Assembly: GCA_951406725.2 (NCBI GenBank)
Contig: OX597833.1
Location: forward strand, 64,480,001-64,544,000
Direction of reading: 5' to 3'
Source: Octopus vulgaris
Taxonomy: Eukaryota
DNA length: 64,000 nucleotides
The translations under genes were made by a program, and so were the position numbers. Shown here piece by piece: positions 38,119 through 56,093 of this stretch (position 1 is the first letter of the stretch; every line of letters begins with the position of its first letter). A model generated the notes under the pieces. It worked only from the letters and a program-made list of their open reading frames with translations, ran no database searches and was not told where the DNA came from.

Positions 38119-39444
38119 ATTTTATCGACCCTAGAAGGGAGGAAATATTAAACAGACTCCGGCGTGATTAGAAATCTGAACGTAAAGTGACACAACAATG
38201 TAATATCCAAATTTTCTATAATGGATGGTATCCCAACCGTGACTCTCACGTTTGTTTAATTGTCTATCATCATCTAAATGCTCATTTTATCGACACTAGA
38301 AGGGAGGAAATATTAAACAGACTCCGGCGTGATTAGAAATCTGAACGTAAAGTGACACAACAATGTAATATCTAACTTTTCTATGGTGGATGGTATCCCA
38401 ACCGTGGCTCTCACGTTTGTTTAATTGTCTATCATCATCTAAATGCTCATTTTATCGACCCTAGAAGGGAGGAAATATTAAATAGACGCAGGCGTGATTA
38501 GAAATCTGAACGTAAAGTGACACAACAATGTAATATCCAAATTTTCTATAATGGATGGTATCCCAACCGTGACTCTCACGTTTGTTTAATTGTCTATCAT
38601 CATCTAAATGCTCATTTTATCGACCCTAGAAGGGAGGAAATATTAAACAAACGCAGGCGTGATTAGAAATCTGAACGTAAAGTGACACAACAATGTAATA
38701 TCTAACTTTTCTATAATGGATGGTATCCCAACCGTGACTCTCACGTTTGTTTAATTGTCTATCATCATCTAAATGCTCATTTTATCGACCCTAGAAGGGA
38801 GGAAATATTAAACAAACGCCGGCGTGATTAGAAATCTGAACGTAAAGTGACACAACAATGTAATATCCAAATTTTCTATAATGGATGGTATCCCAACCGT
38901 GACTCTCACGTTTGTTTAATTGTCTATCATCATCTAAATGCTCATTTTATCGACCCTAGAAGGGAGGAAATATTAAACAAACGCCGGCGTGATTAGAAAT
39001 CTGAACGTAAAGTGACACAACAATGTAATATCCAAATTTTCTATAATGGATGGTATCCCAACCGTGACTCTCACGTTTGTTTAATTGTCTATCATCATCT
39101 AAATGCTCATTTTATCGACCCTAGAAGGGAGGAAATATTAAACAAACGCCGGCGTGATTAGAAATCTGAACGTAAAGTGACACAACAATGTAATATCCAA
39201 ATTTTCTATAATGGATGGTATCCCAACCGTGACTCTCACGTTTGTTTAATTGTCTATCATCATCTAAATGCTCATTTTATCGACCCTAGAAGGGAGGAAA
39301 TATTAAATAGACGCCGGCGTGATTAGAAATCTGAACGTAAAGTAACACAACAATGTAATATCGAAATTTTCTCTGAAGGATGGTATCCCAACCGTGGCCC
39401 CCGCGTTTGTTTAATTGTCTATCATCATCTAAATGCTCATTTTT
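38119..39444. repeat. 165-bp tandem repeat, 8 copies
   Basis: TTTATCGAC starts at 38121, 38286, 38451, 38616, 38781, 38946, 39111 and 39276; a few variants between copies. Confidence 0.95.
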
Positions 39445-39625
39445 ATATATATTGTTGGTTATCCACACATCCTCTGATATAGCAAAGGATTGAATATAAT
39501 CCAACCATGACCCTCACTTTTGTTTAATTGTCTATCATCGTCTAAATGCTCATTTTTATATATATTGTTGGTTATCCACACATCCTCTGATACAGCAAAG
39601 GATTGAATATAATCCAACCATGACC
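39408..39625. repeat. 113-bp tandem duplication at the end of the 165-bp array
   Basis: TGTTTAATTGTCTATCATC..CCAACCATGACC at 39408 and 39521. Confidence 0.9.
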
Positions 39626-40596
39626 ACCTCTTTTAAAGTATTAATTTCAAACTTTGACAGAAGCCCAGCAATTTCGGGAGAAGGATAAATCGATCATCTC
39701 GACCCCCAGTGATTAACTGGTTCTTATTTTTAAGCCTGCACTAACCACGAAGAAAGAAAAATATTTGCTGTTACCATTCGGTTATTTTAGATGATGGCGG
39801 AGACTAATTTATTAAATGCAAATTGTTGGGTGTCGACGAGGACTTGGCTGTTGTTTCTGTTCTGACTGGTGACAGCACAGAAGTATTTTCCTTGGCACGA
39901 CATAAATTTTAGATAAAAATTGTTTTTTTAGGTTGGGTAAACAATGTTTTAGTTTAGACAATTGACACCGTTCGTTCCTGAGCTTCTTCAGGTTTCTTCA
40001 GAAAGAAACGAAGGAACGAAAAACAAAAAATAATATAAAAACAATAAGGAGAAAGGACTGAAAGAAAGGAAGGAAATGATGAAGGAAAAGCAAAAAAAAA
40101 AAAAAATACTGCAAAGAAGTATTGCCAGAATGAAAGGATATTAACAAAATAAATATTTTTCACATTGCTAAAGGCTATTTGCAGTGAAAGGAATTAATAG
40201 ATTCCGCTGTCAGTCACGTGGCATATCCGAAAATAGAGCTGAAGTCTCTTGCGATTCTATAGTACTAATAATAAATGGCTTCGTGTATTGATACAAGAAT
40301 TCATATTGGTAGATAAGACAGACATACAGACATACAGGCAGGCAGATACATCGTTGTTGATTAACTCAACGGCAGTAGGAATGGTTACCGAACCAGTAAG
40401 AATTATTAGTCAGGTTTTATTCAAATTACGACATAAAATATGAGCAGTGGGTGGTAGAAGAGTCAGGGCGGTGGGGACAAGATGACTTGTGTGATTTGTT
40501 CCGATATTTTGGTCTGTGAGTTAAAAATCCCTCAATGTTTCATTCTGCATTTTAGAATTGAGAAATAAAGTACCAGCCCTATTATTTAGGAATATA

Positions 40597-41990: not shown

Positions 41991-42587
41991 AGGCGGCGAG
42001 CTGGCAGAAACGTTAGCATGCCGGGCGAAATGCGTAGCCGTATTTTGTCTGCCGTTACGTTCTGAGTTCAAATTCCGCCGAGGTCGACTTTGCATTTCAT
42101 TCTTCCGGGGTCGATAAATTAAGTACCATTTACGCACAGGGTTCGATGTAATCGATTTAATCCGTTTGTATGTCCTTGTTTGTCCCCTCTGTGTTTAGCC
42201 CCTTGTGGGTAGTAAAGGAATAGGTAATTCGTCTGCCGTTACGTTCTGAGTTCAAATTCCGCCAAAGTCGACTTTACGTTTCATCCTTTCGGGGTCGATT
42301 AAATAAGTATCAGTTAAGCACTGGGGTCGATGTAATCGATTTAATCCGTTTGTATATCCTTGTTTGTCCTCTCTTTGTTTAGCCCCTTGTGGGTAGTAAA
42401 GAAATAGGTATTTCGTCTGCCGTTACGTTCTGAGTTCAAATTCCGCCGAGGTCGACTTTGCCTTTCATCCTTTCGGGGTCGATTAAATAAGTACTAGTTG
42501 AACACTTGGGTCGATGTAATCGACTTAGTCCCATTGTCTGTCATATTTATCCCCTCTATGTTTAGCTTATTGTGGAGAATAAAGAAT
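41991..42587 (+). mobile_element. SINE family B trimer (one full unit plus two headless units)
   Basis: Repeat units restart at 42223 and 42407 (about 184 bp). Confidence 0.85.
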
Positions 42588-48249: not shown

Positions 48250-49040
48250 GCGGTGAGCTGGCAGAAACGTTAGCACGCCGGGCGAAATGCGTAGCCGTAT
48301 TTCGTCTGTCGTTACGTTCTGAGTTCAAATTCTGCCGAGGTCAACTTTGCCTTTCATCGTTTCGGGGTCGATAAATTAAGTACCAGTTACGCACTGGGGT
48401 CGATGTAATCGACGTAATCCCTTTGTCTGTTCTTGTTTGTCCTCTCTGTGTTTAGCCCCTTGTGGGTAGTAAAGAAATAGGTGTTTTGTCTGCCGCTACG
48501 TTCTGAGTTCAAATATCACCGAAGTCGAATTTGCCTTTCATCCTTTCGTGGTCGATTAAATAAGTACCAGTTACGCACTGGGGTAGTTATAATCGACTTT
48601 ATCCGTTTGTTTGTCCTTGTTTGTCCCCTGTATGTTTATCCTCTTGTGGGCAATAAAGAAATAAGAAACGTTAGCACGCCGGGCGAAATGTGTAGCCGAG
48701 TTCAAATTCCGCCAAGGTCGACTTTGTCTTTCATCCTTTAGGGGTCCATTAAATAAGTATCAGTCACGCACTGGGGTCGGTGTAATCGACTTAATCCGTG
48801 TGTCTGTCCTTGTTCGTCCTCTCTGTGTTTAGCCCCTTGTGGGTAGTAAAAAAATAGGTATTTCGTCTGTCGTTACGTTCTGAGTTCAAGTTCCGCCAAG
48901 GTCGACTTTGTCTTTCATCCTTTAGGGGTCCATTAAATAAGTATCAGTCACACACTGGGGTCGATGTAATCGACTTAATCCGTGTGTCTGTCCTTGTTTG
49001 TCCCTTCTGTGTTTAGCCCCTTGTGGGCAATAAATAAATA
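48250..49040 (+). mobile_element. SINE family B tetramer with 14-bp target-site duplication
   Basis: Units at 48250, 48480, 48664 and 48857; TATAATCCTCTAAG at 48230-48243 and 49041-49054. Confidence 0.85.
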
Positions 49041-51270: not shown

Positions 51271-51306
<36 letters not shown>

Positions 51307-51387
51307 GGATGTGAGTCTGTACATATATATATATATATGTGTATGTATATAAATACATATATATATATGTATATATATGTATACATA

Positions 51388-51436
<49 letters not shown>

Positions 51437-51554
51437 CAATTAAGGAACGGCCATAATAGGCCATTCACCCACTAGAAATAACAGCCAAAGCTTCTACCGC
51501 AAATAAAGATCAATTCCGTAAACAGGAGAAAATTAAAAAAACATTTACCCTGTA

Positions 51555-54086
51555 ATTTCTTGTACGGTATACCGTTTCATCTGCTGTTTAATGGTAAACT
51601 AACCTGATTAAATTAAATCAAGCCAATCTTCCATAAGCCCTCAGATTCTTCAGCAAGAAATAGCTCAAGTCGGAACAGATATTTACACGAGGCATACCCA
51701 ATCCTGCCAAGGCAATATCTGACCTAAAATTTTCAAATCGTCGCACTCGCGCCAAATTTATCGGCAGCAAATAAATCGTCGATTCCATTACGGAATTAAC
51801 CAAAAAATTCATAATTAATCAATATAGGGTGGCAAGGAAAATTTTGTAGAATTTTTTTGCCACCAGCGGCCCAGTGGGAAAAAATTAAATAGTCATAGAC
51901 CATTTTTAAGTTCAACATTAACAATTAAGGAACGGCCATAATAGGCCATTCACCCACTAGAAATAACAGCCAAAGCTTCTACCGCAAATAAAGATCAATT
52001 CCGTAAACAGGAGAAAATTAAAAAAACATTTACCCTGTAATTTCTTGTACGGTATACCGTTTCATCTGCTGTTTAATGGTAAACTAACCTGATTAAATTA
52101 AATCAAGCCAATCTTCCATAAGCCCTCAGATTCTTCAGCAAGAAATAGCTCAAGTCGGAACAGATATTTACACGAGGCATACCCAATCCTGCCAAGGCAA
52201 TATCTGACCTAAAATTTTCAAATCGTCGCACTCGCGCCAAATTTATCGGCAGCAAATAAATCGTCGATTCCATTACGGAATTAACCAAAAAATTCATAAT
52301 TAATCAATATAGGGTGGCAAGGAAAATTTTGTAGAATTTTTTTGCCACCAGCGGCCCAGTGGGAAAAAATTAAATAGTCATAGACCATTTTTAAGTTCAA
52401 CATTAACAATTAAGGAACGGCCATAATAGGCCATTCACCCACTAGAAATAACAGCCAAAGCTTCTACCGCAAATAAAGATCAATTCCGTAAACAGGAGAA
52501 AATTAAAAAAACATTTACCCTGTAATTTCTTGTACGGTATACCGTTTCATCTGCTGTTTAATGGTAAACTAACCTGATTAAATTAAATCAAGCCAATCTT
52601 CCATAAGCCCTCAGATTCTTCAGCAAGAAATAGCTCAAGTCGGAACAGATATTTACACGAGGCATACCCAATCCTGCCAAGGCAATATCTGACCTAAAAT
52701 TTTCAAATCGTCGCACTCGCGCCAAATTTATCGGCAGCAAATAAATCGTCGATTCCATTACGGAATTAACCAAAAAATTCATAATTAATCAATATAGGGT
52801 GGCAAGGAAAATTTTGTAGAATTTTTTTGCCACCAGCGGCCCAGTGGGAAAAAATTAAATAGTCATAGACCATTTTTAAGTTCAACATTAACAATTAAGG
52901 AACGGCCATAATAGGCCATTCACCCACTAGAAATAACAGCCAAAGCTTCTACCGCAAATAAAGATCAATTCCGTAAACAGGAGAAAATTAAAAAAACATT
53001 TACCCTGTAATTTCTTGTACGGTATACCGTTTCATCTGCTGTTTAATGGTAAACTAACCTGATTAAATTAAATCAAGCCAATCTTCCATAAGCCCTCAGA
53101 TTCTTCAGCAAGAAATAGCTCAAGTCGGAACAGATATTTACACGAGGCATACCCAATCCTGCCAAGGCAATATCTGACCTAAAATTTTCAAATCGTCGCA
53201 CTCGCGCCAAATTTATCGGCAGCAAATAAATCGTCGATTCCATTACGGAATTAACCAAAAAATTCATAATTAATCAATATAGGGTGGCAAGGAAAATTTT
53301 GTAGAATTTTTTTGCCACCAGCGGCCCAGTGGGAAAAAATTAAATAGTCATAGACCATTTTTAAGTTCAACATTAACAATTAAGGAACGGCCATAATAGG
53401 CCATTCACCCACTAGAAATAACAGCCAAAGCTTCTACCGCAAATAAAGATCAATTCCGTAAACAGGAGAAAATTAAAAAAACATTTACCCTGTAATTTCT
53501 TGTACGGTATACCGTTTCATCTGCTGTTTAATGGTAAACTAACCTGATTAAATTAAATCAAGCCAATCTTCCATAAGCCCTCAGATTCTTCAGCAAGAAA
53601 TAGCTCAAGTCGGAACAGATATTTACACGAGGCATACCCAATCCTGCCAAGGCAATATCTGACCTAAAATTTTCAAATCGTCGCACTCGCGCCAAATTTA
53701 TCGGCAGCAAATAAATCGTCGATTCCATTACGGAATTAACCAAAAAATTCATAATTAATCAATATAGGGTGGCAAGGAAAATTTTGTAGAATTTTTTTGC
53801 CACCAGCGGCCCAGTGGGAAAAAATTAAATAGTCATAGACCATTTTTAAGTTCAACATTAACAATTAAGGAACGGCCATAATAGGCCATTCACCCACTAG
53901 AAATAACAGCCAAAGCTTCTACCGCAAATAAAGATCAATTCCGTAAACAGGAGAAAATTAAAAAAACATTTACCCTGTAATTTCTTGTACGGTATACCGT
54001 TTCATCTGCTGTTTAATGGTAAACTAACCTGATTAAATTAAATCAAGCCAATCTTCCATAAGCCCTCAGATTCTTCAGCAAGAAAT
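51555..54086 (-). ncRNA. Six minus-strand copies of the same hammerhead: 51555-51661, 52040-52146, 52525-52631, 53010-53116, 53495-53601, 53980-54086
   Basis: Reverse complement of the 54388-54494 motif, repeated every 485 bp in the inverted part of the array. Confidence 0.88.
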
Positions 54087-54387
54087 AGCTCAAGTCGGAA
54101 CAGATATTTACACGAGGCATACCCTTGTTAATGTTGAACTTAAAAATGGTCTATGACTATTTAATTTTTTCCCACTGGGCCGCTGGTGGCAAAAAAATTC
54201 TACAAAATTTTCCTTGCCACCCTATATTGATTAATTATGAATTTTTTGGTTAATTCCGTAATGGAATCGACGATTTATTTGCTGCCGATAAATTTGGCGC
54301 GAGTGCGACGATTTGAAAATTTTAGGTCAGATATTGCCTTGGCAGGATTGGGTATGCCTCGTGTAAATATCTGTTCCGACTTGAGCT

Positions 54388-54494
54388 ATTTCTTGCTGAA
54401 GAATCTGAGGGCTTATGGAAGATTGGCTTGATTTAATTTAATCAGGTTAGTTTACCATTAAACAGCAGATGAAACGGTATACCGTACAAGAAAT
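54388..54494 (+). ncRNA. Type I hammerhead ribozyme with extended stem II
   Basis: Stem I ATTTCTTG (54388-54395)/CAAGAAAT (54487-54494); core CTGAAGA (54396-54402); stem II ATCTG (54403-54407)/CAGAT (54466-54470); GAAA (54471-54474); stem III A-CGG-TATA-CCG-T; cleavage triplet GUA, predicted cut after 54486. Confidence 0.88.
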
Positions 54495-54872
54495 TACAGG
54501 GTAAATGTTTTTTTAATTTTCTCCTGTTTACGGAATTGATCTTTATTTGCGGTAGAAGCTTTGGCTGTTATTTCTAGTGGGTGAATGGCCTATTATGGCC
54601 GTTCCTTAATTGTTAATGTTGAACTTAAAAATGGTCTATGACTATTTAATTTTTTCCCACTGGGCCGCTGGTGGCAAAAAAATTCTACAAAATTTTCCTT
54701 GCCACCCTATATTGATTAATTATGAATTTTTTGGTTAATTCCGTAATGGAATCGACGATTTATTTGCTGCCGATAAATTTGGCGCGAGTGCGACGATTTG
54801 AAAATTTTAGGTCAGATATTGCCTTGGCAGGATTGGGTATGCCTCGTGTAAATATCTGTTCCGACTTGAGCT

Positions 54873-54979
54873 ATTTCTTGCTGAAGAATCTGAGGGCTTA
54901 TGGAAGATTGGCTTGATTTAATTTAATCAGGTTAGTTTACCATTAAACAGCAGATGAAACGGTATACCGTACAAGAAAT
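54873..54979 (+). ncRNA. Type I hammerhead ribozyme (array copy)
   Basis: Identical to 54388-54494, offset +485. Confidence 0.88.
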
Positions 54980-55357
54980 TACAGGGTAAATGTTTTTTTA
55001 ATTTTCTCCTGTTTACGGAATTGATCTTTATTTGCGGTAGAAGCTTTGGCTGTTATTTCTAGTGGGTGAATGGCCTATTATGGCCGTTCCTTAATTGTTA
55101 ATGTTGAACTTAAAAATGGTCTATGACTATTTAATTTTTTCCCACTGGGCCGCTGGTGGCAAAAAAATTCTACAAAATTTTCCTTGCCACCCTATATTGA
55201 TTAATTATGAATTTTTTGGTTAATTCCGTAATGGAATCGACGATTTATTTGCTGCCGATAAATTTGGCGCGAGTGCGACGATTTGAAAATTTTAGGTCAG
55301 ATATTGCCTTGGCAGGATTGGGTATGCCTCGTGTAAATATCTGTTCCGACTTGAGCT

Positions 55358-55464
55358 ATTTCTTGCTGAAGAATCTGAGGGCTTATGGAAGATTGGCTTG
55401 ATTTAATTTAATCAGGTTAGTTTACCATTAAACAGCAGATGAAACGGTATACCGTACAAGAAAT
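55358..55464 (+). ncRNA. Type I hammerhead ribozyme (array copy)
   Basis: Identical to 54388-54494, offset +970. Confidence 0.88.
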
Positions 55465-55684
55465 TACAGGGTAAATGTTTTTTTAATTTTCTCCTGTTTA
55501 CGGAATTGATCTTTATTTGCGGTAGAAGCTTTGGCTGTTATTTCTAGTGGGTGAATGGCCTATTATGGCCGTTCCTTAATTGTTAATGTTGAACTTATAA
55601 ATGGTCTATGACTATTTAATTTTTTCCCACTGGGCCGCTGGTGGCAAAAAAATTCTACAAAATTTTCCTTGCCACCCTATATTG

Positions 55685-55741
<57 letters not shown>

Positions 55742-55830
55742 GTATAAATATATATATGTATATATATATATGCAGCGAATTATATTTCGTACGATACTAC
55801 AAGAAATCGCACAAACATACTTATACGCAT

Positions 55831-55889
<59 letters not shown>

Positions 55890-56093
55890 CATATAGCTAC
55901 AATTCTCTGTATTGTGTTAAACGTGCATTACCTCGACCGGTGCCTTTCCTGTATTTGCTGTTCTTGGTAGCAGTAAGTGTTCTCTTCAGAAGGTTTTTCA
56001 ACACAGGCCGGTTTGAGGGGATATAAAATCTTCAATGGAGCAGGCCATTAATCGCATTACGAAACACAAGAGATTACATGATTCTATTATTCT

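Follow-up and report, generated by a model that had tools for sequence, protein, structure and literature searches.

Non-LTR retrozymes of metazoans are described as tandem, non-coding repeats of low GC content with a type I hammerhead ribozyme in each unit (PMC7229834; Li et al. 2026 preprint, 10.64898/2026.07.22.740005). Both sources propose mobilization by Penelope-like elements (PLEs), with circular RNA proposed as the template of tandem cDNA, and the ends of the insertions go undescribed in their main texts. The array analyzed here is alike in having a type I hammerhead per tandem unit, in being non-coding and of low GC content, and in having no LTR. It differs in its long stem II and in its 485-nt monomer, which is above the range of about 170 to 400 nt given in the text of PMC7229834 and within the 51 to 972 bp given in the text of the preprint. 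It also differs in that most insertions of its family consist of two arms placed head to head, and their two outer ends are fixed, an arrangement absent from the main texts of both papers.

The other close relatives are EN+ PLEs. In the accessible parts of PMC8557442 and of the PLE curation guide, PLE insertions appear as inverted 5′-truncated copies in (TA)n targets, with a tail of 30 to 40 bp that is often present at one end only. A PLE protein, predicted to be dimeric, cleaves AT-rich DNA and extends its two strands, and it initiates at a pair of internal RNA sites between which the tail lies (PMC11167929). For the inverted pLTRs of PLEs, the accessible text of PMC3846280 proposes template switching or self-priming, with head-to-head repeats arising by self-priming on an antisense template, a matter left open there. 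The array resembles EN+ PLEs in its inverted, 5′-truncated head-to-head copy, its one-sided tail, its (TA)n target and its two RT start sites downstream of a hammerhead, and a multicopy non-autonomous element, Chlamys (MRC1), is known among them (PMC8557442, PMC11167929, PMC3846280, in the parts available). Unlike EN+ PLEs, the retrozyme has no ORF, its tail is 106 nt instead of 30 to 40 nt, both of its arms can be concatemers (up to 14 copies), and no homologous autonomous element was found.

A third comparison is 5′ inversion of L1 by twin priming. As outlined in the accessible sources, it is similar in that two target-primed cDNAs are joined head to head, some by microhomology. It differs from the present family, in which the second site is fixed, the arms overlap on the template, and there is no poly(A).

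We suggest that the array is probably a young retrozyme insertion into (TA)n, made by a PLE RT/endonuclease that primed both DNA ends on one sense RNA, from two fixed sites separated by 106 nt. A literature search that covered main texts, mostly of open-access papers, turned up no account of such an end signature for retrozymes. The components are known singly; in the searchable literature, neither their occurrence together nor the 106-nt tail nor the constraints seen at population level appear to have been reported.

Structure of the array and its junction

The window (the whole 64-kb stretch of Octopus vulgaris DNA that was analyzed) contains no evident gene, its 28 long reading frames being mostly read-through of simple repeats. 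With monomer phase 1 defined as window position 54125, its retrozyme array is laid out as follows:

51275..51435, no strand: left (TA)n-rich microsatellite, the insertion target (TRF and sequence)
51434..54124, minus strand: A arm, inverted, the 485-bp monomer in 5.55 copies without differences; sense 3′ (outer) end at phase 6, site A; inner (sense 5′) end at phase 226 (mapping)
54124..54125, no strand: head-to-head junction, blunt, without microhomology or inserted bases (mapping)
54125..55688, plus strand: B arm, in ribozyme sense, 3.2 copies; start at phase 1, end at phase 109, site B
54133..54238, plus strand: 106-nt A-to-B stretch of the first copy in the B arm, corresponding to the "tail" of PLEs (fold and catalogue)
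54388..54494, plus strand: type I hammerhead in the first B-arm copy (fold and covariation)
55687..55895, no strand: right (TA)n-rich microsatellite (TRF)

Exact mapping places minus-strand monomers to the left of 54124/54125 and plus-strand monomers to the right, which bears out the strand switch that the original prediction had put there. The A arm (51434-54124) matches the reverse-strand monomer with zero mismatches, and the B arm (54125-55688) matches the forward-strand monomer with a single substitution, at 55598. At the junction, GGCATACCC on the left meets TTGTTAATG on the right, with 0 nt of microhomology. The left edge of the array (phase 6) adjoins the start of the direct arm (phase 1), and the predicted overlap of 4 to 6 bp (TAACAA) is indeed present: it is 6 nt, or 4 nt if TA is assigned to the target. 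Flipping 51440-54124 was said to restore a seamless array; the inner junction does become seamless, but TAACAA is left orphaned at the left end.

The direct 3′ segment ends in ..GATTA within (TA)n and, again as predicted, is in ribozyme sense, since CUGAAGA occurs on that strand only; the ribozyme strand is thus that of the plus arm. Site A of the first B-arm copy falls at 54132 and site B at 54238, and both lie in predicted unpaired loops of the monomer circle. The window array has no poly(A), and a target-site duplication is not resolvable inside (TA)n.

A covarying hammerhead in the monomer

The hammerhead of the first B-arm copy is built from an 8-bp stem I, a CUGAAGA core at 54396, a 5-bp stem II with a long hairpin cap, GAAA at 54471, and a 3-bp stem III with a palindromic loop; the cut is predicted after 54486 (GUA). 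Further hammerheads follow every 485 bp in the B arm (54873 and 55358), and the A arm has six on the minus strand (e.g., 53980-54086). The structure, at phases 264-370, coincides with the unconstrained minimum-energy fold of phases 261-371, and the fold of the region has a z of −4.2. A search of the window against Rfam at the gathering threshold returned no match, probably because of the long stem II. The monomer is non-coding (longest stop-free frame, 66 amino acids; GC, 0.36).

On the sense strand, the hammerhead covaries. In the 72 loci that contain a complete copy, the core is unchanged, save for N7, H17 and one A>G. A pair in stem I is G-C in 40 loci and A-U in 32, and a pair in stem II is G-C in 50 and A-U in 20, with 2 mismatches, these being counts of related sequences and not of independent events. 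The palindrome of loop III is kept throughout, as TATA in 49 loci and as TGCA in 23.

Two fixed outer ends across the family

We searched the 2.8-Gb genome for other copies and examined two samples, each biased in its own way. Sample 1, biased by best identity, comprises the best 40 of 1282 scored loci and is unselected for ends; sample 2, biased by its exact B end, comprises 60 of 694 exact B ends, the first ones from two contigs, with one locus skipped as already included. A second DNA search of the genome returned only loci already known.

In sample 1, 32 of 40 loci are two-armed, and all 32 run minus then plus (head-to-head), with the sense 3′ ends outward. The outer ends are fixed at site A, with its mode at phase 8, and at site B, with its mode at phase 114. 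An A end is paired with a B end in 28 of the 32, and neither A/A nor B/B pairs occur; the four left over are L042, L047 (a complex locus) and a pair of duplicates, L060/L061. The last two (G000:C30) are 10-kb loci that are 99.3% identical and in opposite orientation, and they represent either a segmental duplication or an uncollapsed haplotype. In sample 2, an inverted arm is present at 47 of 60 loci, with its outer end at A in 43, at B in 0 and elsewhere in 4. Pooled, A/B pairing holds at 71 of 79 two-armed loci, with A/A and B/B together at 0; two of the 8 loci off the rule are one duplicated locus. Start and end phases had both been expected to vary among copies. The inner starts do vary, but the outer ends are fixed at A or B.

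TA runs flank both sides of 30 of the 32 two-armed loci in sample 1. In 19 of 21 single-arm loci, (TA)n begins no more than 45 nt from the 5′ end, and these loci share no element body; at some of the "single-arm" loci (L036, L051, L150, L163), a short stub of the other end is present. We rejected an autonomous PLE, or a truncated tail copy of one, as the identity of the family because there is neither an ORF with RT and GIY-YIG nor a common element body.

The outer ends need just 2 to 3 nt of pairing with (TA)n. Microhomology alone was rejected as the selector of the sites: 21 monomer positions give a 3-nt match (TAT/ATA), and site A is not one of them. Sites A and B are therefore likely set by protein-RNA geometry.

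Inner starts and twin priming

In classical twin priming, the outer edge is variable and adjoins the inner start, and the arms abut on the template. We scored a locus as adjacent when the inner start of one arm and the outer end of the other were no more than 10 nt apart. Adjacency occurs in 3 of 28 A/B loci of sample 1 (2.4 expected, P = 0.43) and in 3 of 43 of sample 2 (3.6 expected, P = 0.72), or in 6 of 71 pooled loci with about 6 expected, the window locus being among the six. At ±20 nt, sample 2 has 7 of 43 loci, compared to 7.0 expected. The inner starts of the 71 A/B loci are scattered over the monomer. Moreover, 62 of the 71 B arms extend more than 20 nt beyond site A, and the two arms thus overlap on the template. 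In the window, a variable start most likely happens to fall next to a fixed end by chance, although a small causal share is possible.

L1-type twin priming would have a B-primed first cDNA halted at a second primer on A, with adjacency as the causal outcome. The window suits it, in that the B arm starts at phase 1, 5 to 7 nt from site A, and near-A starts also occur at L054 and at a few sample-2 loci (L145, L156, L173, L174). We nevertheless consider this explanation unlikely, given that adjacency has no excess over chance, that most B arms pass site A, that poly(A) is absent, and that the second priming site is fixed instead of variable. Twin-priming geometry had been offered as independent evidence for an RNA-templated insertion; with an outer edge fixed at A and adjacency at chance level, it loses that role. 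The broader claim of an RNA-templated, Penelope-like insertion survives: an RNA-templated origin and two priming events with the ribozyme strand as template are supported, but L1-style twin priming is not.

Haplotypes of paired arms

The arms of one locus have a median divergence of 0.000 from each other, compared to 0.062 from the arms of other loci (L047, L060 and L061 dropped). In 57 of 58 loci, an arm is nearer to its partner than to the median arm elsewhere, and the exception, L190, is probably a match of a self-complementary stem. Dual priming on one RNA would account for this common haplotype, but so might a pair of RNAs transcribed from a single source array.

In that second case, the same two sites would be used with one RNA per arm, both RNAs coming from one source array or from a ribozyme-linked dimer. 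No template would then need to be copied twice. Source arrays are near-identical internally, and the palindromic loop III is kept, as in the dimer-acting hammerheads described in the available text of PMC7229834. However, equivalent RNAs should also yield A/A and B/B pairs, found in 0 of 79 loci, and with divergence in the family reaching 10%, a mixed pool should produce arms that do not match, whereas 57 of 58 match. We therefore regard separate RNAs for the two arms as improbable.

Single priming followed by fold-back (self-priming or template switch), or a later inversion or inverted duplication at the DNA level, would likewise yield identical haplotypes and head-to-head arms, and at 43 of 71 loci one arm could be nested in the other. 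At the remaining 28 of 71, neither arm is contained in the other and each has sequence that the other lacks, so fold-back or DNA duplication cannot be the source there. The joints link unrelated phases without palindromes, which is contrary to fold-back; the same breakpoint phase at 71 loci is not expected of DNA inversion, and the flip in the window orphans TAACAA. Altogether, we find an origin of this kind very unlikely. An assembly or fold-back read artefact at the window junction is scarcely credible: no listed contig in four other runs (two of them read to about 80%) spans 54124/54125, a gap that proves nothing, but fold-back chimeras are mirror images while the window arms start at phases 226 and 1, the outer ends of the arms are at two distinct fixed sites, a pattern found at dozens of further loci, and short-read contigs of the other runs contain many similar arm joints at other phases (short sides, 92% setting).

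Template form and inner joints

For insertions primed twice on one RNA, the points at which the arms stop bear on the form of that RNA. In 23 of 142 arms, the stop is in the 35-nt bin just 3′ of the first ribozyme cut, compared to 2 to 5 in neighboring bins; 101 of 142 arms extend beyond the first cut, and 14 of the 55 longer arms stop at a later one. Arms of more than 2 monomers number 32 of 142, the longest having up to 14 copies. In 15 of 71 loci, the B arm is 70 to 125 nt longer than the A arm, as if one common 5′ end had been reached. The stops at the cut, together with the run-through past it, suggest that the templates include cut linear RNA as well as circles or uncut multimers, the latter two being alike in these data.

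The inner joints of the 28 A/B loci in sample 1 comprise 13 overlaps, 6 blunt joints and 9 with filler. Microhomology of at least 3 nt occurs in 5 of the 19 filler-free joints, compared to 6.5% at random, and is 0 nt in the window. The filler at the joints of L057, L058, L067, L068 and L040 consists of short copies of nearby sequence, which we take to resemble polymerase-theta end joining.

Penelope-like elements in the genome

A search with the GIY-YIG profile PF01541, in which 70 loci were examined out of 6136 first-look candidates, found many PLE-type loci. None of the 70 holds a PLE with sequence similarity to the monomer (blastn and profile), and the driver is therefore inferred from the insertion signature. 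A match at L073 was rejected as a PLE-retrozyme chimera: it is 57 bp of solo A arm, inserted independently at a distance of 1.1 kb from a GIY-YIG that has decayed. An Rfam search of four PLE loci gave repeat-driven noise only.

One young PLE family has a 765-amino-acid ORF with RT (E = 1e−6, slightly below Pfam's cut-off) plus GIY-YIG at the C terminus. Its 4.8-kb partial-tandem unit has two (TA)n-abutting ends about 40 nt apart, and an inverted arm is detectable at 3 of 19 loci, all three of which pair a short (A) with a long (B) end. A second PLE family has two classes of 3′ end about 30 nt apart (L120, L121, L125, L126, L128, L130, L133). In the intact PLE family at L108, a candidate hammerhead-like motif with a non-canonical core (UUGAUAA ... 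GAAAC) is located about 70 to 110 nt before the short end.

A model of dual priming on one RNA

We propose that GIY-YIG would cleave both strands of (TA)n and that a dimeric RT on one RNA would then initiate at A for one strand and at B for its counterpart, with only 2 to 3 nt of pairing. The RNA may sometimes be linear, after cutting by the ribozyme, and at other times a circle or uncut multimer. Each cDNA would extend for a variable length over an overlapping template, by strand displacement or re-use of the template, and the cDNA ends would be joined bluntly, via microhomology, or with short, locally templated filler. More tentatively, and with some doubt on our part, a dimeric PLE RT might load at the two fixed sites of one retrozyme RNA circle, running two strand-displacing rolling-circle reverse transcriptions, one per cut DNA end.

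Several observations count against this model. No PLE among the 70 GIY-YIG loci resembles the monomer in sequence, 8 of the 79 two-armed loci depart from A/B pairing, and the 106-nt tail is longer than the 30 to 40 nt of reported PLEs. In addition, the start sites of the anole PLE in vitro did not differ between strands, and uncut RNA was used (PMC11167929).

If true, the rule of one RNA with two sites would explain in general how head-to-head inverted pLTRs and the one-sided PLE tail arise, and it would replace the antisense self-priming model. The insertions would also be direct genomic evidence that animal ribozyme circles serve as templates of PLE retrotransposition. One short RNA would make two questions testable: the origin of PLE inverted repeats with a one-sided tail, and which enzyme mobilizes animal retrozymes, so far argued from co-occurrence and pLTR similarity. 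The family supplies natural events by the hundred in which A/B pairing is strict, both arms have one haplotype and stops occur at the cut, features that together separate dual priming on sense RNA from self-priming. A compact RNA that guides (TA)n-targeted insertion in trans would define the cis signal for PLE enzymes.

Other repeats

The window has further tandem repeats. A 165-bp tandem at 38119-39634 (8 copies, 97%) runs into a related 113-bp tandem, and arrays of a 184-bp unit lie at 42040-42566 and 48300-49040; no hammerhead motif was found in either the 165-bp or the 184-bp arrays. The 184-bp unit is presumably SINE-like, with a B-box-like motif. The retrozyme family of the window is also abundant in sequencing runs labeled as two other organisms (X3 and X5). 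A second, unrelated hammerhead family is present at positions 90-574 of L079 (CUGAUGA, long stem II, GAUC loop III) in a head-to-head, two-armed arrangement in which (TA)n terminates one arm while the second extends further. Hammerheads similar to those of L079 occur in L108, L109 and L113.
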